A DNA stretch of 64,000 nt from a virus: the IMG/VR virus record IMGVR_UViG_2974791491_000001, positions 5,026 to 69,025 of that record; one strand, given 5' to 3'. The notes beneath the pieces were generated by a model. It was not told the DNA's origin, did not search any database, and saw nothing but the letters and a program-made list of their open reading frames with translations. Positions 4,634 through 55,101 of the stretch are shown here, piece after piece. Numbering within the stretch: position 1 is the stretch's first letter; each line of letters starts with the position of its first letter. The translations under genes and the position numbers were made by a program.

Positions 4634-5593
4634 ATGACTTTTAACGCAGTCAAGGTTGAGAAGCTTGCCAGTTACGGCTTGGAGCTGTTGCAGCGCCAGA
4701 TCGTTCTCCCGTCGCGGATTACCATTAAGAGTGGTGCCGAGTTCCAGGGTGCGCTTGGCGATGCCATCACTATCAAGATCGGTGCCCGCACCAAGGCTCG
4801 TCGGGCCAAGATCCGTCCCGCTACCGAAGCGGAACGTCAGATCCAGTTCTCGGATCTGAGTGAGCAGAAGACTCACGTCACTCTGACCGACCGTATCTAC
4901 TCGGCTGTTGGCCTTGAGGATGAAAAGGCGAAGTTGGACGTCGAGGACGTCTTCTCGCAGGTTGTTGCCCCTCAGGTCCGCGCTATTGCGGTCGACTACG
5001 AGAACCTGTTGGCGGAAGAGATTGCGGGTGCCCCGTACAAGCACGTTGTGCCTGTCGACCCGGATCACCCCTACGAGGCTTTCGTTGAGGCTAACCGTCT
5101 CTTGGGTCTGTCGTTCGTTCCGGACGAGAACCGCACCCTGTTGGTTGGTGCGAACTTCGAGGCTGCTCTTCGGAAGAGCCCGCAGTTCATTGCCGCGACC
5201 AGCGCTGGTGACGCTATCGCTTCGAGCCTGTTGGCGCGTGCGACCCTCGGCACCATCAACGGCTACACCGTTGTTAAGAGCTACGCTCTGCCGGCCAATG
5301 AGGCTTACATCATCCACAAGAGTGCGTTCAGCTCTGCGTGGTTGGCTCCTGTCGTCCCTGACGGCGCTAGCTGGGGTAAGTCGATTGGCTTGGGTGGCGA
5401 GACCGGCATTTCGCTGACCTGGTTGAAGGATTACGACTTCATGGTTGGCCGCGACCGTTCGCTCCTGCACTTCTACACCGGCGTCAACACCACGATTGAC
5501 GAGCCGGACGTGAATGCGGACAACGAGATTGTTGCTGCTGGTGGCTTCCTGCGTGCGGTGAAGCTGGTTCTGCCGGGTGACACGAGCGCCTGA
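4634..5593 (+). CDS. major capsid protein
   Basis: 319 aa ORF after scaffold, strong RBS context, typical size and position for an HK97-like capsid subunit. Confidence 0.65.
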   Translation: MTFNAVKVEKLASYGLELLQRQIVLPSRITIKSGAEFQGALGDAITIKIGARTKARRAKIRPATEAERQIQFSDLSEQKTHVTLTDRIYSAVGLEDEKAKLDVEDVFSQVVAPQVRAIAVDYENLLAEEIAGAPYKHVVPVDPDHPYEAFVEANRLLGLSFVPDENRTLLVGANFEAALRKSPQFIAATSAGDAIASSLLARATLGTINGYTVVKSYALPANEAYIIHKSAFSSAWLAPVVPDGASWGKSIGLGGETGISLTWLKDYDFMVGRDRSLLHFYTGVNTTIDEPDVNADNEIVAAGGFLRAVKLVLPGDTSA

Positions 5594-5615: not shown

Positions 5616-6086
5616 TTGATGGGGGCTTTGGCTTCTGTTGATCGACTCTCGGCTCGTTTGGGTGTCACTTTAGCTCCCGGTAATCCTGACTATGTGCGGG
5701 CGGAAGAGGCATTGTGGTCCTCTTCCGTCCGCGCTAGGGGTATTGCGGAGCGCGAGTGGGAAGATCCGGCGACGGTCCCTGATGAGGTGCTTGACGTTGT
5801 GTTGTCGGCTGCTTTCAGGATCTTCAAAAACCCGGATCGGTTCCTCACTAACCAGGCCGGGACTTTCCAGGCAACGTTGGCGCAGTCAGATTTCGCTACT
5901 GGCGACATTTTCCTGCCTGCTGAGGTTGCGATTCTTGAGAAGCATCGGCCACAGGCTGCTTTGCGGGTGTTAAGCATCTACCGGGATGATCCCCGAGAGA
6001 AGCTGTGGCATTCGGAGCAGTTTGTTGCGGACGGCGGCGCTGGCGAACCGATGCTCGTGTACCGGCCCGACGAGGTTGGGTACTGA
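5616..6086 (+). CDS. head-to-tail connector / adaptor protein
   Basis: Position between capsid and tail genes; 156 aa. Confidence 0.4.
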   Translation: MMGALASVDRLSARLGVTLAPGNPDYVRAEEALWSSSVRARGIAEREWEDPATVPDEVLDVVLSAAFRIFKNPDRFLTNQAGTFQATLAQSDFATGDIFLPAEVAILEKHRPQAALRVLSIYRDDPREKLWHSEQFVADGGAGEPMLVYRPDEVGY

Positions 6087-6427
6087 TGCTTCTTTTCAAT
6101 ATCGCTGATGCGGAAACGATAACGATTCTGCGTAAGGGTGTCCGTGATTGGACGGGCGACCCGATTGATGAGAACTCGAAGGATTTCGATTTCTCGCACA
6201 AGATTTCTGGTGTTCTGGTCGATTACCAGACCACTACCTCGAATAAGTGGCTTACGGACGATTACACGGTGCGTGGTGTGCTGCATATGCCGGTGGGTTC
6301 GGACGTGTTGCCGACCGATCAGGTTGAGCTTGCGGATGGTACGCGGGTGGTTGTGGACGGTAAGCCGTTTAAGTCTGCTTTGGGCTTTGCGCGTGGCGTG
6401 TCTGTGAGGTTCAGGGGGGTGAACTGA
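6086..6427 (+). CDS. head-tail joining protein (start re-placed at ATG 6086)
   Basis: In-frame ATG overlapping the upstream stop (TGATG); the track start at 6005 would overlap the upstream gene by 80 nt. Confidence 0.35.
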   Translation: MLLFNIADAETITILRKGVRDWTGDPIDENSKDFDFSHKISGVLVDYQTTTSNKWLTDDYTVRGVLHMPVGSDVLPTDQVELADGTRVVVDGKPFKSALGFARGVSVRFRGVN

Positions 6428-6792
6428 TGGAGGTACGCCTTTATCCCGACCCTAATCCTGGGTTGGCTAAGTTCCTTCTTTCTGCCTCGTTGAATAAGGC
6501 TTTGGCTGGGGTTGCTGTTGAGGCTGCGGCCTTGTACATGGCTTTGGCCCCTAAGCGTTCGGGCCGGCTGGCGTCTTCGGCGACTCCGCGTGTGGTGTTG
6601 TCCGGTAAGCCGGAAGGCCCTGACCGTTGGGTTGCCTCTGTTCAGGTTAGAGCCCCGTATTCGGTGTGGAACGAGATGGGCGCTGGCCCCCGTAAGCATC
6701 CGAAGTCGACGGGCAAGGACCCCTGGTATGGCCCGTTTGAGGGCTCTTTCACCTTCAAGAAGGTGCTTGAGGGGATGAAGGGGAACGGTTAG
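6427..6792 (+). CDS. head-tail joining / tail terminator-like protein
   Basis: Synteny; ATGA overlap with previous gene. Confidence 0.3.
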   Translation: MEVRLYPDPNPGLAKFLLSASLNKALAGVAVEAAALYMALAPKRSGRLASSATPRVVLSGKPEGPDRWVASVQVRAPYSVWNEMGAGPRKHPKSTGKDPWYGPFEGSFTFKKVLEGMKGNG

Positions 6793-7280
6793 TGGCTATC
6801 GAGTTTCCGGACTGGTACAAGGGTGGTTTTCCTGACGCTGAGGCGGCAGTTAAGGCGATCCTTGATCCGTTCCTTAACCAGCTTAGCCCGATTCCGAGTG
6901 TGTGTGCTTGGCTGCCGGATGACTATGACAAGTATTTGCCTGTCGTGGCTATTCAGCGTGTCGGCGGAAAGATTTCGGATGACGGTTTGACCGACAACCC
7001 GCTGGTGTGGGTGTGGGTCATTTCTGAGCGGCGTCACGATTCGTGGCGGCTCATTGAATACATACGTCAGGTGATGAGGACGTATTGCAGGGGCGATCGG
7101 GTCGTCAATTCGGCCGGCGACGTGTTCCTGATTGAAAGCGTAAGCGAGGTCCAAGGGCCTGAGCTGACGCAAACCAACGTGCCAGACGAGCGTGTCATTC
7201 CCGTGGCGTTCGCACTTGAGACGAAGAAGTTTGCTTCGACTCCTGATTATGCACGCATTCGCGGGGAACTTTTTGATTGA
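6792..7280 (+). CDS. tail-completion-like protein
   Basis: Synteny only. Confidence 0.3.
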   Translation: MAIEFPDWYKGGFPDAEAAVKAILDPFLNQLSPIPSVCAWLPDDYDKYLPVVAIQRVGGKISDDGLTDNPLVWVWVISERRHDSWRLIEYIRQVMRTYCRGDRVVNSAGDVFLIESVSEVQGPELTQTNVPDERVIPVAFALETKKFASTPDYARIRGELFD

Positions 7281-7951
7281 GAGGGCCTGTTATGGCTGAT
7301 GGCATTAAGTCTTTGAAGGATAAGAATGACGGCTTGGTCGTCATGGCTCGTGATGCGGCTGTCATTGCGACTCCTTACGGTTTGGGAACTATCCCGACCA
7401 AGTTGACCGGTCCTGGTGGCAATCTGATTTCGCTGCCGTCCAACTGGGACACCTTTGGTGAGTTGGACCAGAAGACCGGTATCAAGATCACTCCGGACGT
7501 TAAGACTGCGGACGTCGAGGGTTATGGCTCGATGGGTCCGCGACGGACTGTCAAGACCGGCGAGTCGGTGACTCTGAACTTCGCTGCTCAGGAGTCGAAG
7601 AACCTGGTTCTGTCGGCGTTCTGGGATCTGGACCTGTCGGACACTGTTGCGGATAGCAATGGTGAGTGGCAGGCGAAGAAGAGCTACGCCTCGGATATGA
7701 AGCTGTGGAGCCTCATCCTGTTGGGTGCGGACCAGAACGAGTACGGAGATGTTTACCCGTACTGGATCTTCCCGAAGGTCATGGTTACCAAGACTGACGC
7801 TGTGTCCTTGGGCACTGACGCTGCTCTGGTTTACCCGTTCACCTTCCAGGCGTTCGAGGATGAGAACTTTGGCGGGTTCATGGCTATTGGTGCGGCTGGT
7901 CCGGGCCAGGCTGGCGTGAACGCTAAGGCCGGGTTCGCTGCGGGTTCCTGA
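7277..7951 (+). CDS. major tail protein
   Basis: 224 aa ORF just upstream of the chaperone pair and tape measure. Followed by a strong intrinsic terminator, consistent with a highly expressed structural gene. Confidence 0.6.
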   Translation: MRGPVMADGIKSLKDKNDGLVVMARDAAVIATPYGLGTIPTKLTGPGGNLISLPSNWDTFGELDQKTGIKITPDVKTADVEGYGSMGPRRTVKTGESVTLNFAAQESKNLVLSAFWDLDLSDTVADSNGEWQAKKSYASDMKLWSLILLGADQNEYGDVYPYWIFPKVMVTKTDAVSLGTDAALVYPFTFQAFEDENFGGFMAIGAAGPGQAGVNAKAGFAAGS

Positions 7952-7971
7952 TCTAAGCATTAACTAAGACT

Positions 7972-8027
7972 GCGGTCACTCGGAAGGGATTTCTTACCAC
8001 TTCTCTTCCGGGTGGCCGCTGTTTTTG
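7972..8027 (+). terminator. rho-independent terminator after major tail gene
   Basis: 15-bp stem GCGGTCACTCGGAAG / CTTCCGGGTGGCCGC (two G-U pairs), 18-nt loop, then TGTTTTTGTCTTCTC. Confidence 0.55.
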
Positions 8028-8061
8028 TCTTCTCTACACACTTTTCGGAGGTTTCCTACCC

Positions 8062-8352
8062 ATGTCCGCCCCCAATGAGTTCCTGTTTCATGAACTTAAG
8101 CAGGAAATTGGCATCCCCAAAGACATTCCCTTGACTGAGGACATTCTCCTGCGGTTCCCGACCCGCACTCAGATGCGTGAGTATGCGCTTGCGTCGACCG
8201 CTCAGGAGAAGAACCGTGCGATCTTCGGTGAACACTATGACGCGATCCAGGAGTTGTTCGATAAAGAACCTCCCCAGTTGTATTTGGCGTTTGTGAACCG
8301 GATTGAGACGCTGTGGTTCGGCAAGGGGGCTAACGAGGTTCCGGGAAAATAG
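8062..8352 (+). CDS. tail assembly chaperone (short product)
   Basis: 96 aa ORF between major tail gene and tape measure; ends ..GGGAAAATAG with a slippery heptamer. Confidence 0.6.
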   Translation: MSAPNEFLFHELKQEIGIPKDIPLTEDILLRFPTRTQMREYALASTAQEKNRAIFGEHYDAIQELFDKEPPQLYLAFVNRIETLWFGKGANEVPGK

Positions 8353-8819
8353 CTGGCCTGCTGGACATGATTGACCGCTACTGGCCTGAGTTGGAGTGGG
8401 ATTTTCAGACCCAGCTTGGTTTGCGGGCTATGGACTGGATTGCAGGCGAGAAGGATTGGCGTGAGTTTTACCGTCTTAAGTCCCGGTTTGGGATGGGGAC
8501 GGCGTATTTCAATGCGGTGGCTAATGATCCTGAGGTTGCCGCACAGTTGGCCGAAGAGATGGCCGCTAAGGGGCGTTCCGCTAATACTGCCCCGTCGTCT
8601 GAGGGCTGGTTCCCGTGGAAGGACGACGTTGCGGATCTTAAGGACCATTTGACAGCCATTAGGGGCGCGATTACTGGGGCTAAGGCCCATGAGTTGTCGT
8701 TTGTTGTGCGTCCTGAGTTTGAGTTTGACCGTATTCGACGGCGTAAGGCCGTTAAGAAGCTTCGTGCTGCACAGTCCATTCTGTTGCCGCACAAGAACAT
8801 CCAACTTTTGAACGATTGA
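8062..8819 (+). CDS. tail assembly chaperone, -1 frameshift fusion product (slip at 8343-8349)
   Basis: G GGA AAA heptamer (8343-8349) in the zero frame 1 nt before the TAG. The -1 frame is open from 8334 and runs to 8819 (ORF 8367..8819 lies in that frame). Confidence 0.5.
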
Positions 8820-9258
8820 GGTTTCCTGAAATGACCACCGTTGTTGTCGACGCTGCTACTGGTATCGCTAAGCCTGCCACCCTCATTGATGAGCTGTTGG
8901 CTGAGAAGCCCCAGCTTTTCCGTAAGGTCATCCAGTTCACTGACGATATCGCTATCCCGATTCCTACTCAGGAGCAGGCTAAGGCGATTCAGAAGGCTGA
9001 GAGCCCCGAGCAGATGGTTCGGCTGATGTTTGGTGACCAGTTCGATGCTGTTGAGAAGTACTGCGAGGGCCTGCCGGTTGGTGCCGGTGTTGTGGCTCTC
9101 GCAAAGCTGGTTGAAGCGATTAAGGATTCGCTCCCGGATATTGACCATGTGTTTGCCGAGTACGGCATTGATCGCAGTGAAGTTGAAGCGCAGTACAACG
9201 CGAAGTTGAACAAGGCTGAGTGACCCCGACTTGGGTCCAAGCGAGGGGGTAACCTGTT

Positions 9259-12200
9259 ATGGCTGAGAAGTTTTCGATCGGTGATGCGGTCCTTAACATT
9301 GTCCCCTCGCTTGATGAGTTCAAGGAGCGGCTTGATAGCCAGCTTAAGGCGTACCGGGAGTATTTCGATGTAGTTATCCGCCCGGATATGGACCAGTTTT
9401 TCACTAAGCTGGAATCCGACGTTAAGGCTGCTGCGGCTGCTGCTGGCGGGGACGTCAAGGTTACGGCTGATACGTCTCAGGCTCAGGCCGAGATTGCTGC
9501 TACGAAGGCTGCTGTTGAGCAGGCTGGCGGCGAGGTCAAGATCGAGGCTGATGCTTCTCAGGCACTTGCGGAGGCTGCTGCTACTAAGGCGGCGATTGAG
9601 TCGACGTCTGCGGAGATGGACGTCCGGATTGACACGGCCGAGTTGCGCGAGGCTTTGTCGATGGCCCGTGAAGAGGCCGATATCCGCCGCGATATTGCGA
9701 TGGCCCGTGAGATGGCTAACGCGGCTGCGGAAGAGGATGAGCGCAAGGCTGCCGCCAAGATGGAGCAGAACCTTCGCCGGGAGCTTAGCTCTCGTCAGTT
9801 GATCGTTCAGGCGTTGCGTGCCGCTAATGACGTCGAGGGTATGTCGTCTCAGGAGCGCGAGTCGGCTATGCGTCGGATTCGGGCTGCTGAGCAGGAGATT
9901 GCTCGGGATAAGGCTCGTGCTCGTGTCGATACGAACATGTCGAACGAGGATCTGCTTAACGCTTTGCGGTCTGAGTCTGTGTTGCGGTCGGAGATTGCTC
10001 GGGCTCGTGCTTCTGGTGATGAGGCTGGGCTGACTGCTGCTCGTGAAGAGCTGGGTATCCGCCAGGAGTTGGAGCGTGCTGAGCGTGCTCGGGCTCGTGC
10101 TGCGGCACCTAAGGAGAAGGAAGCTCGGGACGCGCTTACTGCTGAGCAGAAGTTGCAGGCTGAGCGTTCGGCTGCGGCCGGCAAGTGGGCTGAGGATCGC
10201 CGTAAGGAACGTGAGCGTCGTGAGGCTGCCGAGGCTAAGGAGGCGTCCAAGAAGGTCGACCTGTCGGCTGCTGAGGCTGCGATTGTGGCGTTGCAGGCCG
10301 AGATTGATGCCCTGTCGGGCGATATCGAGGTTGGCGCGGACACTGATGAAGCTCGCATGCGGATCGCTGTCCTTGAGGAACGTATCCGGTTGCTGCGTTC
10401 GGATCTTCGGATCGGTGCGGACACGGTCGAGGCTCGTGCTCGGGTAGCGATTCTGGCGGCTCAGATCCGCGCTATGAAGGCGGATATCCGGGTTGGTGCG
10501 GACACTCGTGACGCTGCTGAGGAAGTGGACGATTTCGAGGCCCGCTTCCGCGTGGTGCAGTCGTTCCAGGGTGTGAATCTGTTCTCGCTGGGCAACATCA
10601 CTTCGGCGATTGTCGGTATCGGAACGATTATCGGCTTGCTGGGTGGTGTGGTGGCTGCGGCCGGCGCGGCGGCTACGTCGTTGGGTGCGATGGGCGGCGC
10701 TGTCGCTATCGGCTCTAGTGGCGTTTTCGGGGCGTTCAATGAGCTTCGGGCACAGAACCAGCCGGGGGCTCAAAACTCTGGGCAGCAGGCCGTACAGGCG
10801 ATGCGGGAGCAGCGTGAGGCTGTCCAGCGTGTCGCTGACGCTCAGCAGAACTTGCGTAATGCGTCTTCGGACTTGGCGTCGGATCAGGACCGGTTGCGTG
10901 ATGCGACCAAGGATGCGACTCGTGAGATTCGGGATCAGCGTCTTGAGCTTGAGGATGCCCGTCTGGCGCAGGAGGGTTCGGCTATCGCCGTTGCCCGCGC
11001 TAAGGAGAACTACACCGAGGTTAAGCGTCGGTTTGATCGTGGTGAGGCTTCGGCCCTGGACTTGCAGGAGGCGGACCTTCGGGTTCGCAGTTCGCAGTCC
11101 CGGTTGCGGTCGTCGCAGAACAACCTTTCGGATACCCGTGAGGAAACCCGGACGGTTGTGCGGAACGGTGTGGCCAACAACCCCAACGTGGTCGCTGCTC
11201 GTGCTGGTGTCGCTGACGGTATCGACCGGGTGGCTAAGGCTCGTCGAGAGCTGAATGATGCGCGCACCGATGCTTCGGCTGCGGTTGCGGGCGCTGGTGT
11301 GGATCGCTTCACGCAAGCTATGGCTCGGTTGTCGCCTAACGCTCAGGACTTTGTGACTAAGGTCCGATCTTTGGGTGGTGCGTGGACTGATCTTCGGATG
11401 GCTACGCAGGATGCTTTGTTCGCTGGTTTCGGTGACACGTTCACTGACGTGGCGTCTAAGCAGATGCCTGAGTTGCAGCGCGGCATGGTGCAGTTGGCTG
11501 GGGTTGCTAATACGGTGTTGTCGGATTCGCTTCGGCGGGTGTCGGCCACGTTTAGCGAGTTCACTGCTAATGGTACGTCTGCGGCGTTCTTTGATGCGGT
11601 TGCTGCTTCGTTCTCGGGGTTCGCCCCGTTTGTGGAGTCGCTTGTCCGTGTGCTTACTGAGCTGACCATCGGTATGGGTCCCCAGTTGGGTGTGTTCTTC
11701 GAGGATCTGGGCCAGTTCCTAGAGAATCAGGCCCCAATGTGGACTCGCATGGGTTCGCAGGTGCTCGGCGTTATGTCGCTTCTGTTGCCGGTGTTCGATC
11801 AGATGTTCCAGGCTCTTGAGCCTGTGTTTTCTGAGGGCTTCGAGCAGATTGTGCGTATCTTCTCGGCTTTGGCTGATGCGTTGTCGGAGAATCAGGGTCC
11901 GCTTACCGAGTTCACGTCCGCGTTGGGCTCGATGATCGTTAATCTGATTAAGGCCGGCAGTGAGCTTATGCCGCTGTTCTTGGGTGTACTTGAGTTCTTT
12001 ATGGACGCCATTTCGGGTATCAACCCGGAAGTGTTGGCGGTCATCTTGGGTTCGGTTATCGCTTTGCGATCGGTGGCTGGCGCGTTTATCGCCGTGGGTA
12101 ACACTGCGGGTCGATTGATTGCTGCTGGCGACTCTTTGGCGCAGGCGTTCGCGTTCTTGCGGCTACTGCCGGGACGTATCGCTGCTAGCTCTATTGGTAT

Positions 12201-45969: not shown

Positions 45970-46313
45970 AACTGCGTGTCGAGTATGAAATTCCGGAGGA
46001 TCAGCACGAGCGGGTGCGGTTGCAGGCGAAGCTTTCGGAGCTGGATTCGTTGCTGTCGTGGGTGGAGCCGTGGAAGCGGACTATCAGCCTGATTGACGAC
46101 AGCCCACTACCGGCTTGCGCGACCGAGATGAAGCGTAGGCACCCGGAGCCGATTTGCGGTAGCTGTCGTGAGCCGATCCAGGCAACCGAATGGTGGGGTT
46201 ACCACCAACGCTTGCACTCGTACGTGCACCTGAACGCCCCCTGCTGGCACAACCTGTACGGGGAGGACGTCAGCGGCCACACCATGATGCTCGGTTCGGG
46301 GGTGCCCGCGTGA
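45966..46313 (+). CDS. hypothetical Cys-rich protein
   Basis: 115 aa, CGSCREP..CWHN. Confidence 0.3.
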   Translation: MKLRVEYEIPEDQHERVRLQAKLSELDSLLSWVEPWKRTISLIDDSPLPACATEMKRRHPEPICGSCREPIQATEWWGYHQRLHSYVHLNAPCWHNLYGEDVSGHTMMLGSGVPA

Positions 46314-47242
46314 CATTCCTAGTTGCTATGCGGGGCCTTCCCGGATCAGGCAAGACCACCCGTGCCCGCGAGATAGCTAAGGAGACCGGGGCTGTCGTTG
46401 TCGGCCGCGACTTCGAGCGGTTCCAGATGTTTGGGGAGTGGTGGACCGGCAAGAACGAGCATGAAAATGCCGTGACAGTTGCGCTCAACGCTAAGGTCCG
46501 GGCGCTGCTTAAGGACGATCAATCCGTGGTCGTCGATAACACCCACGTTCAGCTTCGCCTCCTCAAAGCCTGGGCCAAGATTGCGTCCGAATGTGGAGCC
46601 ACCTTCCACGTCGAGGACGTCAAGACGCCAGTCGAAACCTGCTTGTACCGGGACATGCAGCGGCAAGCCAACGGCGAGCGCTGGGTTGGTGAAGACGTCA
46701 TCAACCGGATGGCTAAGCAGATCAATTGGGGGCAGATTAAGCCGGTCCCGCCGATCATTGTTGAGCCTCTGCGCTACCAGGAAACCCCCTGGGACGCCGA
46801 TGCCGCGATCATTGTCGACATCGACGGCACCCTCGCTCACATGCGGGAGGTCAACGGCACGGTTCGTAGCCCGTACGACTACAGCCGTGTTCACGAGGAC
46901 GCGGCCGATCCGACCATCGTCAGCATTGTCTACGACTACAAGAACGCGCTGAACGGCACAGTAATCGTCTGCTCTGGCCGGGACGACGACTGCCGAGACG
47001 TTACCGAACAGTGGTTGAAGAGCCACAGTATCCCGTTCGACATGCTGCTGATGCGACCAGAGGATGCGCGGGACGCGAACGGCAACAAACTCCCGGACTG
47101 GATCGTTAAGTACAACCTGTTCAACGAGCACATTCGCGGCCAGTACGCGATCGACTATGTGCTCGATGACCGCAACCAGGTTGTGAACATGTGGCGAGCG
47201 CTCGGGCTTAAGTGCCTGCAAGTTCAGCCGGGAGACTTCTGA
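46310..47242 (+). CDS. pnkp: polynucleotide kinase-phosphatase (P-loop kinase + HAD phosphatase)
   Basis: GTG 46310 (GTGA overlap). Walker A GLPGSGKTT; C-terminal IIVDIDGTLAH (DxDGT HAD motif). Confidence 0.6.
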   Translation: MTFLVAMRGLPGSGKTTRAREIAKETGAVVVGRDFERFQMFGEWWTGKNEHENAVTVALNAKVRALLKDDQSVVVDNTHVQLRLLKAWAKIASECGATFHVEDVKTPVETCLYRDMQRQANGERWVGEDVINRMAKQINWGQIKPVPPIIVEPLRYQETPWDADAAIIVDIDGTLAHMREVNGTVRSPYDYSRVHEDAADPTIVSIVYDYKNALNGTVIVCSGRDDDCRDVTEQWLKSHSIPFDMLLMRPEDARDANGNKLPDWIVKYNLFNEHIRGQYAIDYVLDDRNQVVNMWRALGLKCLQVQPGDF

Positions 47243-47514
47243 TGGCCGAACCGAATGTCATCGAACTCAAGTCCGAAAGCGGAAAGGTCATCACCTTCCT
47301 GCACCCTTTCGAGCCGGGTGAAGCCGAAATGGTTTTGTCCGAGCTGAAAACACTTCGGGGCGGGTTTGACCAGATGATTGACGACCTCGAAAAGCGGGTC
47401 GAGAAGCTGCGCGTGGAAGGGCTCATGGAGCCGAGCGTTGTTGTCTCACTCGATGAATACCGGGCACGTAAGGCCGCTAAGGCGAGTGCTCTTGAACCTA
47501 AGGATATTGGTTGA
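47242..47514 (+). CDS. hypothetical protein
   Basis: ATGA-coupled to pnkp; 90 aa. Confidence 0.35.
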   Translation: MAEPNVIELKSESGKVITFLHPFEPGEAEMVLSELKTLRGGFDQMIDDLEKRVEKLRVEGLMEPSVVVSLDEYRARKAAKASALEPKDIG

Positions 47515-48818
47515 TTCTCGACGCACCTAAGAACAATAACTATGCCGTGACCGTTGTGCGTGTCCCGGCTACCTACGATCTGGATGGCTTGGACAACCTG
47601 GTGGGTGTCAAGGTGTTCAATTCGCAGATCCTCACTCAGCGTGACGGGGTGGAGCCGGGTGAGCTTCGCCTGTACTTCCCGGCCGAGGTCCAGATTTCGC
47701 CCGAGTACGCCGAGTACAACAGCCTGTACAGCGGTGGCGCTGGCCGCAATCGTGACCCGGAAGCCAAGGGCTACCTGGCTAAGAACCGCCGCGTGCGGGC
47801 AATCAAGCTGCGCGGTCACCGTTCGGATGCGCTGCTGATGCCGCTCGACTCGCTCAAGTGCTTCACTGGCCGCTACGACTACCTGCAAGAGGGCGACACG
47901 TTCGACGTGATCGAGGGTCACGAGGTTGTCCGCAAGTACGAGCTTCCCCGCAATGAGCCCAAGGCCGGCGCAACCAAGCTCGCTAAGGTCCTTAAGCGGG
48001 TGGACAAGGCCCTGTTCCCTGAGCATCTGTCGACCGACAACTTCTTCCGCAACTCGCACCTGATCGACGAGAAGCGTGAGGTGGTCATCACCCAGAAGTT
48101 GCACGGCACGAGCATCCGTGTCGGCCGTGTTCCGGTTCGCCGCGAGAAGGGCCGCTGGGAACGTTTCCTCAACAGCCTGGGCGCGGCTAGCCCGGACTTT
48201 GCTCACGAGCCGGTGTTCGGCTCCCGCAAGGTCATCAAGGAGGCCGACAACAGTCGCCAGAACCACTACTACGGTTCGGACATTTGGACCCGGAAGGGCG
48301 CGGAGATTGTCGCGGACATTCCGGACGGCTTCATTGTCTACGGCGAACTGATCGGTTGGACCGAGGACGGTTCGCCGTTGCAGAAGGGCTACACCTACGA
48401 CGTGCCTAAGGGGCAGTCGGAGTTGTACGTGTACCGGGTTGCGCGGATCGACGTCAACCGGACGCTCACGGATCTGCCTTGGGATGGCGTTAAGCAGTTC
48501 TGCAAGGAACGCGGCTGGAAGTATGTTCCGGAGATTTACCGGATTATCCCCGAGGATGAGGTCGACTACGTAGGCGTTGACCTGGATCACCACGTCACGA
48601 CGCTGATGGACGTGCGTTACGCCGACGAGTTCAGGAACCTTCAAGGGGTTACAGACAAGATGGTCCCCCTTTCGGACGCTAAGACTGTCGATGAAGGTGT
48701 GTGCATCCGTCAGGACGCAATTACCCCGGTCATTCTCAAGGCTAAGTCCCCTAAGTTCTTGCAGCACGAGACCAAGCAGCTCGATAAGGGCGAAGTCGAC
48801 TTGGAGAGCGCAGCCTAG
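47511..48818 (+). CDS. ATP-dependent RNA ligase-like nucleotidyltransferase (Rnl5/DraRnl-like)
   Basis: Candidate motif I ITQKLHGTS (Lys ~197 after ~190 aa N-domain), ..IVYGELIGW.., motif V-like VILKAKSPKF. Confidence 0.45.
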   Translation: MILDAPKNNNYAVTVVRVPATYDLDGLDNLVGVKVFNSQILTQRDGVEPGELRLYFPAEVQISPEYAEYNSLYSGGAGRNRDPEAKGYLAKNRRVRAIKLRGHRSDALLMPLDSLKCFTGRYDYLQEGDTFDVIEGHEVVRKYELPRNEPKAGATKLAKVLKRVDKALFPEHLSTDNFFRNSHLIDEKREVVITQKLHGTSIRVGRVPVRREKGRWERFLNSLGAASPDFAHEPVFGSRKVIKEADNSRQNHYYGSDIWTRKGAEIVADIPDGFIVYGELIGWTEDGSPLQKGYTYDVPKGQSELYVYRVARIDVNRTLTDLPWDGVKQFCKERGWKYVPEIYRIIPEDEVDYVGVDLDHHVTTLMDVRYADEFRNLQGVTDKMVPLSDAKTVDEGVCIRQDAITPVILKAKSPKFLQHETKQLDKGEVDLESAA

Positions 48819-49009
48819 TGCAGAACGGGCAAACGCAGTGTTACGTGGCATTCCCCGGCCACCAATTTGACGTGGAATCCTTGCGCTTCGCATACGACCA
48901 CCTGATTGGCATGGGAGTTCCGCGCACCCGAAAACTGACCATCGAATCCGTCCCCAAAGTGGGAGACGAGAAGTGCGATGGGATCGCATTTGTGGAGGTA
49001 GTTCCGTGA
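48818..49009 (+). CDS. hypothetical small protein
   Basis: 63 aa, GTG start overlapping TAG. Confidence 0.25.
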   Translation: MQNGQTQCYVAFPGHQFDVESLRFAYDHLIGMGVPRTRKLTIESVPKVGDEKCDGIAFVEVVP

Positions 49010-49848
49010 CCGTTCACCTGTGGGCGCAAAGCCTCGACGACAAAGAGCTACACCCCGTTCACCCATTCCAGTTCCCTGGCGGCGAATGGCACATCACCCT
49101 CGGTGAACCGTTCGACCAGAGCCGCGACTACCAGTGGATCGCCAACGTTCAAGGTGCTAGTGCCGAAGACCTCGTGGTGGCAACCCTGCTAGCGGACATT
49201 GCGATGGACCGTGGTGAGGACTCGACACTGCTCATCCCCTACCTGCCTGCTGCACGGGCAGACCGGGGTGTCCCCCTTGGGCTTAGCGTGTACGGCGGCA
49301 TCATCAACGCCGCATGCTTCACCGAGGTAGTCACGCTCGATGCGCACAACCCTAAGGCTGCGGTGCGGGAAGTGAGTGGGCTCGTCAACCTGTCTCCCAC
49401 GCCTTTGGTGACCGCGACCATCCAGTATCACGACACGTTCACCGGGGTTATCGCCCCGGACGCGGGTGCTCGTCAACGCGCCGCCGACGTGGCTACCTCA
49501 CTCGGTGTGCCCCTGGTGGTGGCCGACAAGGAGCGGGACTTCGCCACCGGCCAGATCATGGGCCTGACGGTCCCGGACCTCGACCGGCTGGGTAACTACC
49601 TGGTGGTCGATGACATTTGTGACGGCGGCGGCACCTTCATGGCTCTCGCTAGTGCCACGAACCTGCCGCAAGACCGGCTGTCCCTGTGGGTCACGCACGG
49701 CATCTTCTCGGGTAACGCGGCCAACCTGCTCAAGCACTACTACAAGGCCGTCTACACCACCGACTCTCACCCCGGTTCGGGGCAGCTCGGCATGTGGACG
49801 GTCAAAACCCCCACGTGGGCATACATGTACAGAAAGGTCCAAGCATGA
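49006..49848 (+). CDS. ribose-phosphate pyrophosphokinase (PRPP synthetase)-like protein
   Basis: GTG 49006 with GGAGG 8 nt upstream; PRTase/PRPP-binding loop NYLVVDDICDGGGTF. Confidence 0.55.
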   Translation: MTVHLWAQSLDDKELHPVHPFQFPGGEWHITLGEPFDQSRDYQWIANVQGASAEDLVVATLLADIAMDRGEDSTLLIPYLPAARADRGVPLGLSVYGGIINAACFTEVVTLDAHNPKAAVREVSGLVNLSPTPLVTATIQYHDTFTGVIAPDAGARQRAADVATSLGVPLVVADKERDFATGQIMGLTVPDLDRLGNYLVVDDICDGGGTFMALASATNLPQDRLSLWVTHGIFSGNAANLLKHYYKAVYTTDSHPGSGQLGMWTVKTPTWAYMYRKVQA

Positions 49849-51326
49849 CCAAGTTCGCACCCGTAGCAGCGCTCTTCCAGACCGACGCCTACAAGCTCGG
49901 GCACGTTCAGCAGTACCAGTTGGCCGGCGAGGTCACTAAGGTCTACTCGAATTACACCAACCGTAAGAGCCGGCTGCCCGGTGTCGACAAGGTTGTGCAC
50001 TTCGGATTGCAGGCGTTCATCCAGAAGAACCTTGTGGAGGCTTTCGAGCCGTTCTTCGCGGCCGACGAAGACCTGGTGTGCAACCTGTACGAGGAGCGGG
50101 TTGAGCAGATCCTTGGCCCGAACACCATCGGGTCGGATCACATTCGGGCATTGCACCGTAAGGGCTATCTGCCGCTGCGGTTCTGCGGCCTGCCGGAAGG
50201 CACTGAGGTTCCGATCAAGGTTCCGTCGTTCACGGTCGAGAACACCGAGGATGAGTTCTTCTGGCTGACCAACTACATCGAGACGGCGCTTAGCGCTGGT
50301 GTATGGCAGGCATCCACGTCCGCCACGATTGCCCGCCAGTACCGGAAGATCCTCGACGAGGCCGCGCTTAACACTGGCGCTTACCCGTTGGCTGTCGACT
50401 TCCAGTGCCACGACTTCTCTTACCGGGGAATGAGTTCCAATGAATCTGCCCAAGCCTCGGGTGCGGCGCACCTCCTATCGTTTAGTGGGACGGACTCTCT
50501 GGTCGCTCTCGATTGGATTGACCGCTACTACGGAGGTTCGGATTACGTTGCGGCGTCAGTCCCGGCGACAGAGCACTCCGTCATGTGCACCGGCATTGAA
50601 GCCGTCGGAGAGCTTGAGCTCTTTTCGCGCCTACTTGACCTCTACCCGTCGGGAATTGTCTCCGTCGTTTCGGACACCTTCGACCTATGGACGGTCCTGA
50701 CCGAGTTTCTGCCTGCACTTAAGGACAAGATCCTGGCGCGTGACGGCAAGCTGGTGATCCGTCCGGACTCGGGCGACCCGGAGACCATCATCTGCGGAGA
50801 CCCGGATGCCGAGGCAGGGTCCGCCGCCTGGTTTGGTGTCGTCCGGCTGCTTCGGATGGCTTTTGGTTGCACCTGGAATGAGGCCGGCTACCGCGAGTTG
50901 AACTCGCATGTGGGGGTCATCTACGGCGACTCCATCACCCTCGAACGCGCTAAGAGCATCACGGCGCGACTCGAATCTATGGGTTACGCATCCACCAACG
51001 TTGTGTTTGGTGTCGGCTCATACACCTACCAGCACAACACCCGCGACACGTTCGGCTCCGCGATGAAGGCCACATGGGCTGAGGTCGACGGTGACGGCGT
51101 CAACCTGCTTAAGGACCCGATCACTGATGACGGCACTAAGAAGTCGGCTACGGGGCGTCTGGCGGTCGTCAACAGCGAGTACGGCGGAGACCTCAAGCTC
51201 ATCGAACGAGCAACCCCCGAAGCCGAGCAGTGGAGCCTCCTCAAGCCCATCTGGGAAAACGGACAGTTCGTACAGCGAGTTACCTTCGCCGATGTACGGC
51301 GCACCCTGGCTAACGCGGGGGCTTGA
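49845..51326 (+). CDS. nicotinamide phosphoribosyltransferase (NAMPT/NadV)-like protein
   Basis: N-terminal ..FQTDAYKLGHVQQYQ.. and central ..CHDFSYRGMSS.. (DFGxRG-like) motifs; ATGA overlap with the upstream gene. Confidence 0.6.
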   Translation: MTKFAPVAALFQTDAYKLGHVQQYQLAGEVTKVYSNYTNRKSRLPGVDKVVHFGLQAFIQKNLVEAFEPFFAADEDLVCNLYEERVEQILGPNTIGSDHIRALHRKGYLPLRFCGLPEGTEVPIKVPSFTVENTEDEFFWLTNYIETALSAGVWQASTSATIARQYRKILDEAALNTGAYPLAVDFQCHDFSYRGMSSNESAQASGAAHLLSFSGTDSLVALDWIDRYYGGSDYVAASVPATEHSVMCTGIEAVGELELFSRLLDLYPSGIVSVVSDTFDLWTVLTEFLPALKDKILARDGKLVIRPDSGDPETIICGDPDAEAGSAAWFGVVRLLRMAFGCTWNEAGYRELNSHVGVIYGDSITLERAKSITARLESMGYASTNVVFGVGSYTYQHNTRDTFGSAMKATWAEVDGDGVNLLKDPITDDGTKKSATGRLAVVNSEYGGDLKLIERATPEAEQWSLLKPIWENGQFVQRVTFADVRRTLANAGA

Positions 51327-51682: not shown

Positions 51683-52426
51683 ATGCTCGGCGTTGCCGGT
51701 TCCCAGCTCTACGGGACACAGCTCGACAACGGCGACAACGACCAAATGGGGGTGGCAATCGAGCCCCCAAGCCACGTCATCGGGCTAAGCCAATTCGAGC
51801 AATGGCAGTACCACAGTGCAGGCAACGGCGTCAGGTCCGGAAGCGAAGACCTCGACGTCACCGTGTACTCGCTACGGAAGTGGACCCGGCTAGCGGAACA
51901 GGGCAACCCCACCGTTCTGCTGCTCGGGTTCACCCCCGATGAACTTATCCTCAAGGACTCGTTCTGGGGTATGCAGCTCCGCGCCAGCATGGACATGTTT
52001 ATCTCCCAGCAGGCCGGCTCAAGGTTCCTCGGCTACCTCGACTCCCAGCGGAAGCAGATGCTCGGGCTTACCGGCCGCAAGCACTCCAACCGCCCGGAGT
52101 TGGTTGAGCAGTACGGCTACGACACCAAGTTTGCCTACCACGCCGTAAGGCTCGGCATGCAGGGTGTGGAGTACCTGACCACCGGCCACATGGAACTGCC
52201 CATGAAGCAGGAGTACCGCGACTACCTCATTGACATTCGGCAGGGCCGGGAGTCGAAAGAGGACGTGGTGACGGTTATCAACCTGTACATCGACTTGCTG
52301 CGCAAGCTTAAGCATTCGCCGGATCTGCCGCCTCGGGCTAACCGGGTGGAGATTGATGCGTGGCTTGAGGTCATGTACGAAACGTTCTGGTCGTCGCAGG
52401 GGCGGACGCTCCCCCATGTGGCTTGA
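51683..52426 (+). CDS. minimal nucleotidyltransferase (pol-beta superfamily)
   Basis: ..LGVAGSQLYGTQLDNGDNDQMGV.. GS-x9-DxD signature near N-terminus. Confidence 0.45.
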   Translation: MLGVAGSQLYGTQLDNGDNDQMGVAIEPPSHVIGLSQFEQWQYHSAGNGVRSGSEDLDVTVYSLRKWTRLAEQGNPTVLLLGFTPDELILKDSFWGMQLRASMDMFISQQAGSRFLGYLDSQRKQMLGLTGRKHSNRPELVEQYGYDTKFAYHAVRLGMQGVEYLTTGHMELPMKQEYRDYLIDIRQGRESKEDVVTVINLYIDLLRKLKHSPDLPPRANRVEIDAWLEVMYETFWSSQGRTLPHVA

Positions 52427-52739: not shown

Positions 52740-52811
52740 TCCCGTATAGCTTAATTGGCAGAGCGTCCGGTTGTTACCCGGATGGTCCAGGTTCGATTCC
52801 TGGTGCGGGAG
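52740..52811 (+). tRNA. tRNA-Asn (GTT)
   Basis: Hand-folded cloverleaf: acceptor TCCCGTA/TGCGGGA, anticodon arm TCCGG-TTGTTAC-CCGGA, T-arm CCAGG-TTCGATT-CCTGG. Confidence 0.7.
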
Positions 52812-52927
52812 CTTAGAGTAGATTGTTTCGGCTCCGTTTCGTAGAACACTCAGACGTCAATCCAAACGGGCAGCACTCGAAATCACTTACCCATGTGGGT
52901 GTCACTGGTTCATCGTTCGGGTGATCT

Positions 52928-52998
52928 GGGGCGATAGTTCAGTGGTAGAACGGCGGTCTCCAAAGCCGCTCGCCGGGGTTCGATTCCTCGTCGCCTCG
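52928..52998 (+). tRNA. tRNA-Trp (CCA)
   Basis: Acceptor GGGGCGA/TCGCCTC, D-arm GTTC-AGTGGTA-GAAC, anticodon loop CTCCAAA, T-loop TTCGATT. Confidence 0.7.
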
Positions 52999-53030
52999 CC
53001 GCGCTTGGCTGTGCGCGTAAACAGCTATCT

Positions 53031-53103
53031 GCCTTAGAAACCGAATTGGCTAGGTGCCTGACTTCCAATCAGGATTTTGCGGGTTCAAGTCCCGTCTAAG
53101 GCT
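53031..53103 (+). tRNA. tRNA-Gly (TCC)
   Basis: Perfect acceptor GCCTTAG/CTAAGGC, anticodon arm CCTGA-CTTCCAA-TCAGG, T-arm GCGGG-TTCAAGT-CCCGT; short D-stem. Confidence 0.6.
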
Positions 53104-53196
53104 CAATGGGACGCCAGAGATAAACGCTGGTGCGGTAGAAGCTGACCCGATTCAGAAACCCGCCGATTCCCGATCACCGATGGCTGCCGGTATATG

Positions 53197-53272
53197 CAGT
53201 TTCTAACTCTCCGTAGCTCAGTTGGTCTTAGAGCAGGGCACTCTTAATGCCCGGGTCGCAGGTTCGAGTCCT
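53197..53272 (+). tRNA. tRNA-Lys (CTT)
   Basis: Acceptor CTCTCCG/CGGGGAG, D-arm GCTC-AGTTGGTCTTA-GAGC, anticodon arm GGGCA-CTCTTAA-TGCCC, T-loop TTCGAGT. Confidence 0.7.
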
Positions 53273-53345
53273 GCCGGGGAGACGTAGTGGGAGACGGGGG
53301 TTCGATTCCCTCCATGCGCGCTGTAGCTTAATGGTAGAGCACCCA
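53273..53345 (+). ncRNA. tRNA-like fragments (3'-half-like T-arm/acceptor piece followed by 5'-half-like acceptor/D-arm piece)
   Basis: GGGAGACGGGGGTTCGATTCCCTCCA then GCGCTGTAGCTTAATGGTAGAGCA; no complete cloverleaf can be folded. Confidence 0.3.
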
Positions 53346-53528
53346 CGCTTTGCAAATATGTTCCGGATGGCCCGCTCAAGGGATACGGCGCATAGAGCTA
53401 AGAGGTTGTAAGCCCGCAAAGCCCAACCCTTAGTCTCCGCAGGTTCGCCACCGAACTACCTGCGTTATCAAAACCCACGTGAATTGAGGCCGAAGGGCTG
53501 GTGGGCCTTAGTTGGAAGGGTGGACCCA

Positions 53529-53611
53529 AGGGCTTATGGCGGAATTGGCAGACGCGCCGGATTCAAAATCCGGTACTCATTGAGTGTGTGGGTTCGAGTC
53601 CCACTAAGCCC
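53529..53611 (+). tRNA. tRNA-Leu (CAA), long variable arm
   Basis: Acceptor GGGCTTA/TAAGCCC, anticodon arm CCGGA-TTCAAAA-TCCGG, 14-nt variable arm, T-arm GTGGG-TTCGAGT-CCCAC. Confidence 0.65.
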
Positions 53612-53613
53612 AC

Positions 53614-53826
53614 ATGGAAAACACTGACATTCACAATCGGTTCGCCTTCCACCCGGCCACCACGGCTGAAAAGAAGGGCGCTCACGGCAGTATCCGCGAG
53701 ACCATGCTGTCGACCGCGCTCTACGTGAACGCTAACGTTCCGGACGGCCGCGAAAAGTCACTGGCTATCACTGCTCTCGAAGAGGCGATGTTCTGGGCTA
53801 ACGCGGCCATCGCACGAGTGGTCTAG
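53614..53826 (+). CDS. hypothetical small protein
   Basis: 70 aa, starts 3 nt after tRNA-Leu. Confidence 0.3.
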   Translation: MENTDIHNRFAFHPATTAEKKGAHGSIRETMLSTALYVNANVPDGREKSLAITALEEAMFWANAAIARVV

Positions 53827-54065
53827 TGGCAATCGTTCTGGGGGTCGGCGATGTCGACAAGATCACCGATCCCGGACACCTGGAAGCGCTCAGACGCCTC
53901 GAAATGATCGCCGCCTACACGCTTGCGGTTGACGATCCGGACTACGAGGCGCGTGACGTGAACGCTATGGCACTTAGCGGTGCGTGGGCGACTCCCGCGT
54001 ACCAACCATCCGAAATTGGCTCCAAGGCTGGAAAGAAGCTGCGGGCCATGTATTCCAAGAAGTAG
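53826..54065 (+). CDS. hypothetical small protein
   Basis: GTG start overlapping TAGTG. Confidence 0.3.
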   Translation: MAIVLGVGDVDKITDPGHLEALRRLEMIAAYTLAVDDPDYEARDVNAMALSGAWATPAYQPSEIGSKAGKKLRAMYSKK

Positions 54066-54074
54066 GAGAATCCT

Positions 54075-54467
54075 TTGGGTTTCCGTGATCTGTTTACTCC
54101 CCGCACCAAGCGTCAGAAGAAGGCTAAGGGCAAGGGTGAGCAGTTGGGCCGCGCGATCGGCGAACTGAGCGTGAGCGCTCAGGACTTCACCGTATCTCGG
54201 CTTGACACCATCACTCCCCGTACCTACGGCAAGAGCCCGGTCTCTTCGGTTCCGGCTGTCAAGACTCGTCCTGCGATCCAGCCTCGGCCGGCCGCTAAGC
54301 CTCGTAGCTACGACCGACCCAGTTACTCGGGCTATGACGACAGCTCTGCTGCGATCAGTGCTGCTACTGCTGTTGCGGTGTCGTCCAGCTACTCGTCGCC
54401 TTCGTACAGCTCGTGCGATTCCAGCTCGTCTAGCTCGTTCTCGTCCGATGCGGGCTGCTCGTTCTGA
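54075..54467 (+). CDS. hypothetical protein with Ser-rich C-terminus
   Basis: TTG start with GGAG RBS; basic N-terminus, SSYSSPSYSSCDSSSSSSFSS tail. Confidence 0.35.
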   Translation: MGFRDLFTPRTKRQKKAKGKGEQLGRAIGELSVSAQDFTVSRLDTITPRTYGKSPVSSVPAVKTRPAIQPRPAAKPRSYDRPSYSGYDDSSAAISAATAVAVSSSYSSPSYSSCDSSSSSSFSSDAGCSF

Positions 54468-54640
54468 TGTTTGAAGCCATCATCGCGGCTTTCTTCATCA
54501 CCCTACTCGTGGGGTTGTTCGTGGGCTTCGTCTACTGGATGCTCAATCCGCCGTCCTGGGTTGGCGGTGGCGGAACCTATAAGGGCGGGTTCGATCTGAG
54601 TTCGCCGCAAGGTGTTGCCCTACTGGTGGCCGCAACGTGA
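54467..54640 (+). CDS. small membrane protein (below ORF-track threshold)
   Basis: ATGA overlap; MFEAIIAAFFITLLVGLFVGFVYWML.. single TM; a second 33-aa TM peptide may follow (54637-54738). Confidence 0.3.
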   Translation: MFEAIIAAFFITLLVGLFVGFVYWMLNPPSWVGGGGTYKGGFDLSSPQGVALLVAAT

Positions 54641-54781
54641 TAACGACCATCCTCGGCGGGATCGGCGCTATCGCGCTTCTGTATGTGCTCGGTTACATAC
54701 TCATCGGGGCTTGGTGCCTTTGGAGCCTAGGTCGATGATCTATTGGGTTTGGTCACGTTCCCTCATCTAAACGTGACGCTA

Positions 54782-54863
54782 CTAGGTGATGCTCCAATGG
54801 CGGGGCAGCGGGCTGTAACCCCGTGGCGTTATACGCAGGCAGGTTCGATCCCTGTCACCTAGA
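54782..54863 (+). tRNA. tRNA-Tyr (GTA), long variable arm
   Basis: Perfect acceptor CTAGGTG/CACCTAG, anticodon arm GCGGG-CTGTAAC-CCCGT, variable arm, T-arm GCAGG-TTCGATC-CCTGT. Confidence 0.6.
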
Positions 54864-55101
54864 CAATTCACCTTCTTCTACGGGAGACCAACCTAACTCT
54901 GCTCCGTCAGGGGGAAGGTGACCTACCACGCGCCACGGACTGTCACACGCTGATGGTCCGTGGCGCTCTTTTTGTCTAAGAGAGGCTAAGCCATTCAAGG
55001 CGAACAGCTTGTAGACGGGCGCTGTGTGCGTTCGGAGCTTCTACCCGAACAGTGCTGGTGCAAACACCACCGAAACCTTGAGGAAGTGCAGGTAACAATC
55101 C

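Follow-up and report, generated by a model that had tools for sequence, protein, structure and literature searches.

A predicted Rnl5-type RNA ligase encoded near Pnkp in Gordonia phage Kudefre

To which ligase family does the product of Kudefre gene 90 belong, and which broken ends would it join? We addressed these questions in a stretch of 64,000 nucleotides of viral DNA (the window; positions 5,026 to 69,025 of IMG/VR record IMGVR_UViG_2974791491_000001), which corresponds to Gordonia phage Kudefre, NC_060136.1, with 100% DNA identity over the stretch tested; window coordinates are record coordinates minus 5025. Our reading, to which we assign a probability of roughly 70%, is that gene 90 encodes an Rnl5-type ATP-dependent RNA ligase (gp90), whose most likely task is to join RNA ends that Pnkp has healed. 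Much of the setting is known: the gene already bears the annotation RNA ligase, the pairing of its orthologues with Pnkp is in the literature, where those of mycobacteriophages have been discussed as Pnkp partners in RNA repair since 2004–2013, and the histidine signature of its active site has been described. The analysis changes little for the field, and its addition is a modest one, namely the explicit, tested placement of a large actinophage 'RNA ligase' family in Rnl5, together with a residue map.

The open reading frame (ORF) proposed in the initial annotation coincides exactly with the annotated gene. It starts with a TTG codon, which overlaps the stop codon of the preceding gene and has an AAGGA ribosome-binding site 7 nt upstream, and its translation contains both sequences singled out initially, ITQKLHGTS and ILKAK. 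The Pfam profile search that had been suggested returned RNA_ligase (PF09414) at 50 bits, above the gathering cut-off of 27. The similarity of the predicted protein to ligases is far beyond chance, because this score is accompanied by a match to PHROG 968 'RNA ligase' (expect value, E = 2e-107) and by 1748 clusters of homologues at 90% identity. The latter include the RNA ligases of mycobacteriophages Omega (gp162, cluster J) and Cjw1 (cluster E), which are true orthologues with 56% identity over the full length and the same motifs, although the hosts of these phages differ in genus from the Gordonia host of Kudefre. At E ≤ 1e-3 the homologues form 2715 representative clusters (50% identity), and one is found in 379 deposited phage genomes, for the most part from phages of Mycobacterium, Microbacterium and Gordonia; in a sample of 30 records drawn from the whole ranking, every one gives it the name RNA ligase. 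The conservation figures given below were obtained with 48 diverse homologues, with identity down to 28%.

An AlphaFold2 model of gp90, built from 30 homologues (predicted local distance difference test score 81, predicted template-modelling score 0.77), displays a β-rich N-domain (amino acids (aa) ~8–145), a low-confidence linker (aa 148–160) and an α/β domain reaching aa 425. The stretch of about 190 aa noted initially before motif I is therefore present, but it is not a single domain, as it comprises the OB domain, the linker and the start of the nucleotidyltransferase domain. There is no C-terminal domain: motif V occupies aa 408–412 of 435 and is followed by a helix (aa 414–425) and a disordered tail of 10 residues, and in the alignment the C-terminus comes to lie at the end of DraRnl (DR_B0094), the founder of Rnl5. 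A structural comparison had also been proposed, and Foldseek found the best agreement of the model with the entries of NgrRnl (PDB 5COT), the structural prototype of Rnl5 (E ~1e-13, target template-modelling score 0.63–0.69), with Rnl2 at ~1e-6. When taken alone, the N-domain of gp90 resembles tRNA-binding OB folds (3bu2, PheRS beta and the CsaA/Trbp111 type), to which the N-module of DraRnl has likewise been compared (PMC1807946).

The domain order of gp90, with an N-terminal OB domain, then the nucleotidyltransferase and no C-domain, is that of DraRnl, and the resemblance to Rnl5 pointed out initially is also supported by profile comparison. The Rnl5 reference set consisted of DraRnl and five plasmid-borne genes annotated as 'RNA ligase (ATP)' or related, found by tblastn. 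The phage family aligned to this set by hhalign with a probability of 99.8% (E = 9.7e-28, 323 columns; gp90 12–422 and DraRnl 6–338). The profile of the 48 family members also matched residues 8–134 of the NgrRnl N-domain (E = 3.5e-4), as well as the nucleotidyltransferase domain of T4 Rnl2 (E = 1.6e-4). The more diverse profile was needed, as PDB sequence searches with gp90 itself or with a profile of its close homologues retrieved no ligase. A search with the N-domain fragment of NgrRnl returned short fragments only, with no full-length Rnl5 proteins, and the plasmid search by tblastn supplied these instead. Membership of the other families was considered and rejected. In T4 Rnl2 the nucleotidyltransferase is N-terminal and is followed by a helical C-domain, whereas gp90 has an N-terminal OB domain and nothing behind the nucleotidyltransferase. 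Rnl1, which combines the nucleotidyltransferase with a C-terminal tRNA-specificity domain, gave a weak match limited to the nucleotidyltransferase core, and relative to ATP-dependent DNA ligases the OB domain of gp90 is on the wrong (N-terminal) side and the scores are low. The occurrence of Rnl5 ligases in bacteriophages has been stated before (PMC7261155, PMC1807946).

Each of the six ligase motifs (I, Ia, III, IIIa, IV, V) occurs in gp90, and they are either invariant or at least 90% conserved (Table 1). Conservation in motif I is complete for the lysine and at least 90% for H198. The predicted nucleophile is K196 and not K197, as it was first numbered, nor is this the only Lys-Gly motif of the protein, since KxxG also occurs at K99 (K-LRG) and K332 (K-ERG); of these tetrapeptides, only that of K196 is invariant and has the surroundings of a motif I. 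Motif IIIa aligns with DFYVFD of T4 Rnl2 and DFYLFD of NgrRnl, and the KaK of motif V aligns with K225-C-K227 of T4 Rnl2.

The histidine of motif I had been considered non-canonical for a ligase, which turned out to be incorrect. DraRnl has the same residue (163-TEKLHG-168, compared with TQKLHG in gp90), as does T4 Rnl2 (EKIHGTN); it was characterised by mutagenesis of DraRnl in 2007 (PMC1807946), and Raymond and Shuman (2007) described it as a signature of the Rnl2 and DraRnl groups. Read against these sequences, KxHG in gp90 is a known hallmark that strengthens the likeness to DraRnl, but it does not discriminate Rnl2 from Rnl5, because it is common to Rnl2 and DraRnl. T4 Rnl2 and the kinetoplastid RNA editing ligases in fact share with gp90 both KxHG in motif I and KxK in motif V (EKIHGTN/tqKlHGTS and IKCKN/lKaKs in the 1s68/2hvq alignment). 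In the Rnl5 reference alignment the histidine is found in DraRnl (TEKLHGTQ) and in a Paenibacillus homologue (TEKVHGTN), and the remaining members have KxDG; NgrRnl has KLDG (PMC4408790), in contrast to KLHG in gp90. Almost all of the 269 sequences of the phage family have KxHG, and one has KLDG.

Mutagenesis of DraRnl has identified as essential residues T163, K165, H167, G168, S185, K186, E230, F281, E305 and K326, plus K26, Q31 and R79 in the N-domain (PMC1807946). Their equivalents in gp90 are given in Table 1, and that of F281 could not be placed with confidence. The two proteins thus share Ser-Lys/Arg in motif Ia, EG in motif IV and the lysine of motif V. In the N-domain, Q39 and R94 of gp90 show little or no variation across the family, whereas K34 is not family-conserved. 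In NgrRnl, Asp53 of the N-domain is in contact with the metal complex associated with the γ-phosphate, and Lys121 contacts the γ-phosphate of ATP (PMC7261155); these residues align with the conserved E59 and K142 of gp90, and a clear equivalent of NgrRnl Arg4 was not identified. There are also differences. With 435 aa compared to the 342 aa of DraRnl, gp90 is ~95 aa longer than either DraRnl or NgrRnl, with extra segments at ~aa 208–236 (between motifs I and Ia) and ~aa 346–392 (between motifs IIIa and IV). Its motif V is of the Rnl2-like KxK form, where DraRnl has a single lysine, and, unlike DraRnl, it is phage-encoded and lies near Pnkp.

Table 1. Features of gene 90 and its surroundings. 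Positions are those of the window, except in the last two rows, which refer to other viral loci (L handles).
Feature	Position	Strand	Remarks
Gene 90, predicted Rnl5-type ATP-dependent RNA ligase, 435 aa	47511..48818	+	annotated 'RNA ligase', YP_010246609.1
N-terminal OB domain (aa 8–145), signature Rnl5 N-domain	47532..47945	+	conserved Q39, E59, R94, S105, K142; DraRnl K26/Q31/R79 correspond to K34/Q39/R94
Nucleotidyltransferase (adenylyltransferase) domain, aa 166–425	48006..48785	+	PF09414 aa 189–404; AlphaFold2 model, secondary structure; T4 Rnl2 nucleotidyltransferase match
Motif I TQKLHG	48090..48107	+	K196 predicted AMP-accepting lysine, H198 Rnl2/DraRnl-type histidine; DraRnl T163/K165/H167/G168 correspond to T194/K196/H198/G199
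Motif Ia S238-R239	48222..48227	+	at least 90% conserved; aligns with essential DraRnl S185-K186
Motif III YGELIG (E279)	48339..48356	+	E279 invariant; aligns with Rnl5 and Rnl2 motif III; corresponds to the DraRnl motif III Glu
Motif IIIa LYVYR (Y306, Y308, R309)	48423..48437	+	R309 invariant, Y308 at least 90% conserved
Motif IV DEGVC (E395)	48690..48704	+	E395 invariant; aligns with DraRnl E305-G306 (E305 corresponds to E395)
Motif V ILKAK (K410, K412)	48732..48746	+	K410 invariant, K412 at least 90% conserved; K410 aligns with DraRnl K326
Gene 88, bifunctional Pnkp, predicted end-healing partner	46310..47242	+	PF25109 HAD_PNKP 156 bits; P-loop kinase AAA_33; PHROG 505 E = 1.7e-96
Gene 89 (gp89), 90-aa ORF between Pnkp and ligase	47242..47514	+	annotated hypothetical; start and stop overlap neighbours
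gp91, 63-aa small ORF, no assigned function	48818–49009	+	start and stop codons overlap neighbouring genes
Gene 92 (gp92), Prs-like	49006–49848	+	annotated ribose-phosphate pyrophosphokinase
Gene 93 (gp93), Nampt-like	49845–51326	+	annotated nicotinamide phosphoribosyltransferase
Gene 95, RlaP-family nucleotidyltransferase (RNA-ligase-associated Pol-beta)	51683..52426	+	PF10127 97 bits
Six tRNA genes: Asn-GTT, Trp-CCA, Gly-TCC, Lys-CTT, Leu-CAA, Tyr-GTA	52740..54864	+	ARAGORN; GenBank record
RNase_T / DnaQ-like exonuclease near ligase	L008 8275–9021; L009 8272–8823; L010 9593–10303; also L019–L026		
Further ligase + Adps/Namat-like regions	L008 7001–11792; L013 (OQ508957) 6004–10457; loci L014–L075		

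Gene 88, two genes upstream of the ligase, is the bifunctional Pnkp with which the initial annotation had paired it; annotated as a polynucleotide kinase, it carries the motifs GLPGSGKT of a P-loop kinase and DIDGT of a HAD phosphatase. The intervening gene 89 had no Pfam or PHROG match. A two-domain kinase/phosphatase paired with an ATP-dependent RNA ligase is also found in the Pnkp-Rnl1 tRNA restriction-repair system of T4. The combination is not the unusual one it was first taken for, as Pnkp and ligase have been reported in mycobacteriophage clusters E, J and L, and only in these, with every member having both plus at least one tRNA gene (PMC3706429, PMC5511906). In the published view, Pnkp, the orthologous ligase and the phage tRNAs counter a host RNA-directed defence (PMC3706429, PMC5511906), and the Omega and Cjw1 ligases have been proposed to work in RNA repair with the characterised Pnkp enzymes of these phages and the phage tRNAs (PMC3706429).

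We determined how often these genes occur together in 62 related viral loci, which are not phylogenetically independent. In 41 of them Pnkp, with identity down to 31%, is no more than 10 kb away from the ligase, and at least three gene orders occur (Pnkp ~1.2 kb upstream, ~4 kb upstream or 1.5–2 kb downstream). CrystalP and Microbacterium phage Tandem, the latter with a ligase of only 38% identity, share the order Pnkp-small ORF-ligase with Kudefre. In Omega Pnkp is not adjacent to the ligase. An RlaP gene is found at a distance of up to 10 kb from the ligase in 10 of the 62 loci. The Kudefre tRNA genes include those for Lys, Asn and Tyr, and tRNAs of these three kinds are targets of known anticodon nucleases. 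RlaP itself extends RNA 3′ ends by 1–2 nucleotides in vitro (preprint PMC12776372). We read the locus as one of heal-and-seal RNA repair because Pnkp, with its kinase and HAD phosphatase, RlaP and the tRNA genes are all nearby, and because the linkage recurs.

On the basis of the fold, the order of the domains, the motifs and their conservation, and the linkage of genes described above, we infer the catalysis, substrate and biological role of gp90 as follows. By homology, K196 would attack the α-phosphate of ATP to form a ligase-AMP adduct, with H198, E279 and E395 holding the catalytic metal and Q39, E59, R94 and K142 of the OB domain helping to orient the γ-phosphate of ATP, as in NgrRnl and DraRnl. 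The AMP would then be passed to a 5′-phosphate end by means of S238/R239 of motif Ia and K410 of motif V, and the attack of an RNA 3′-OH on the adenylylated end would form the phosphodiester bond. The ends themselves would be supplied by Pnkp, which may convert 2′,3′-cyclic phosphate and 5′-OH ends to 3′-OH and 5′-phosphate for gp90 to seal; RlaP may re-add excised nucleotides before sealing. The sequence of steps would reverse the cleavage of RNA, probably tRNA, by ribonuclease defences of the host.

Several observations weigh against this reading. The score of gp90 against the NCBIfam equivalog TIGR02306 (RNA_lig_DRB0094) is 25.8 bits, with a cut-off of 151.15, it falls just below the threshold of PF21189, and its identity to NgrRnl is 15–17%, so that the substrate preference could differ. 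Given the TIGR02306 and PF21189 scores, the extra length and the insertions, gp90 is classed here as a divergent outlier clade of Rnl5 and not as an equivalog by the NCBI criterion. Furthermore, the characterised Rnl5 enzymes seal 3′-OH(RNA)/5′-PO4 nicks in duplexes, with a preference for Mn2+, and not single-stranded breaks in anticodon loops, and the sole known Rnl5 physiology concerns the resistance of Deinococcus to radiation and the reassembly of its genome (PMC5397189). Several loci, those of cluster J phages among them, have Pnkp at a distance from the ligase. A literature search, with a coverage that left out most subscription journals, found no published assay of the actinophage clade.

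Some of these points agree with an alternative role in DNA replication or repair, in which the ligase would seal nicks with a short ribonucleotide patch at the 3′-OH and a DNA 5′-phosphate, as might arise after gap filling with a primer or ribo-patch. Such a role has been put forward for DraRnl, the loss of which delays genome reassembly after irradiation (PMC5397189), and both DraRnl and NgrRnl accept a 5′-phosphate DNA strand and a DNA template (PMC5397189, PMC4408790). Gene 90 lies among genes of replication and recombination (DnaB helicase, SSB and RusA), an RNase T/DnaQ-like exonuclease is encoded directly downstream of the ligase where Pnkp is distant, and Pnkp could equally heal DNA ends. 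However, the linkage to Pnkp in several gene orders and the recurring linkage to RlaP and tRNA genes favour the healing and sealing of RNA ends, and we consider a function in DNA repair unlikely, though it deserves to be taken seriously.

The ligase might instead act on host RNA, joining or circularising it for takeover of the cell and not for the reversal of damage. This possibility is raised by LeBron gp85, a predicted RNA ligase of 425 aa from a cluster L1 phage, whose overexpression is strongly toxic to Mycobacterium smegmatis; it has a toxicity score of 3, as does the Prs-like protein gp71, and the Pnkp gp74 scores 1 (PMC13148394). Toxicity upon overexpression is, however, non-specific evidence, LeBron gp85 is a putative member of the gp90 family by cluster and size, and the conserved linkage to Pnkp is the classic signature of heal-and-seal repair, which makes takeover a rather improbable explanation. 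That gp90 is not an active polynucleotide ligase, but a degenerate remnant or a nucleotidyltransferase that serves some other acceptor, is hardly credible. The clade does score well short of the cut-off of the Rnl5 equivalog, but all catalytic motifs are intact, the key residues show no variation over the diversity of ~2700 representative clusters, and the intein in motif I of some homologues suggests a strong constraint there.

The sealing of Pnkp-healed RNA thus remains our preferred reading for gene 90, and unlike what is described for Omega and Cjw1, Kudefre has further genes beside the ligase, namely that of RlaP and two genes that may concern NAD+. The product of gene 93 matches the SPbetaL1 Namat structures 9W5X/9W5W with E = 1.9e-138, compared with 6e-62 for canonical Nampt, and together genes 92 and 93 resemble NARP1, a phage pathway of NAD+ reconstitution (Adps and Namat). 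The paper on NARP1 mentions no ligase.

An Rnl5-type ligase is repeatedly found beside Adps/Namat-like genes in very different phages, including Kudefre (window 47511–51326). Of the 62 viral loci, 36 have Adps and 33 have Namat at a distance of up to 10 kb from the ligase. In cluster L-type mycobacteriophages the order Adps-Namat-Pnkp is found upstream of the ligase, and a metagenomic contig of 162 kb has the order ligase-RNase_T-285 aa-RyR-NAPRTase. Alishewanella phage Slickus01 has a ligase that is only 26% identical, again with Adps/Namat-like neighbours. The idea that the ligase is connected mechanistically to NAD+ was considered and set aside, with gene adjacency as its sole support.

A more far-reaching proposal can be made tentatively, and we regard it as doubtful in its entirety: the actinophage clade might be a distinct branch of Rnl5 that seals broken tRNAs directly, by means of its tRNA-binding-like OB domain and clade-specific insertions, as the last of the steps heal (Pnkp), refill (RlaP) and seal, and might be genetically coupled to NAD+ reconstitution by NARP1 in a combined counter-defence island. 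If a distinct tRNA-sealing branch were confirmed, broken tRNA would be the first physiological RNA substrate of any member of Rnl5, a group whose physiological role has been called uncharted in the literature. The conserved linkage to Pnkp, and the rarer one to RlaP and tRNA genes, occur in phages of the tractable hosts M. smegmatis and Gordonia terrae, which offers a practical in vivo test of RNA repair by Rnl5.

Some homologues are interrupted in the active site, with class-1 inteins placed immediately after KLHG. Inteins tend to occupy essential conserved motifs. Four metagenomic homologues of 773–827 aa (P0130, P0173, P0218 and P0233) have a LAGLIDADG homing-endonuclease domain and matches to intein splicing or Hint domains; in P0173, and in a further homologue of 774 aa (P0204), the intein is located directly behind motif I (TQKLHG|C...VVHN|SSVR). 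Another metagenomic protein, P0138, appeared to be a fusion of ligase and RlaP, which would have been a Rosetta-stone link, but its ligase part stops before motif V and its RlaP part is partial, so that it is probably the product of a deletion or an assembly chimera; the ligase and RlaP genes are nevertheless adjacent in that genome.

Finally, in cluster J-type phages and several metagenomic contigs, in which Pnkp is distant, a gene for an RNase_T/DnaQ-like 3′-5′ exonuclease is located directly or closely downstream of the ligase.

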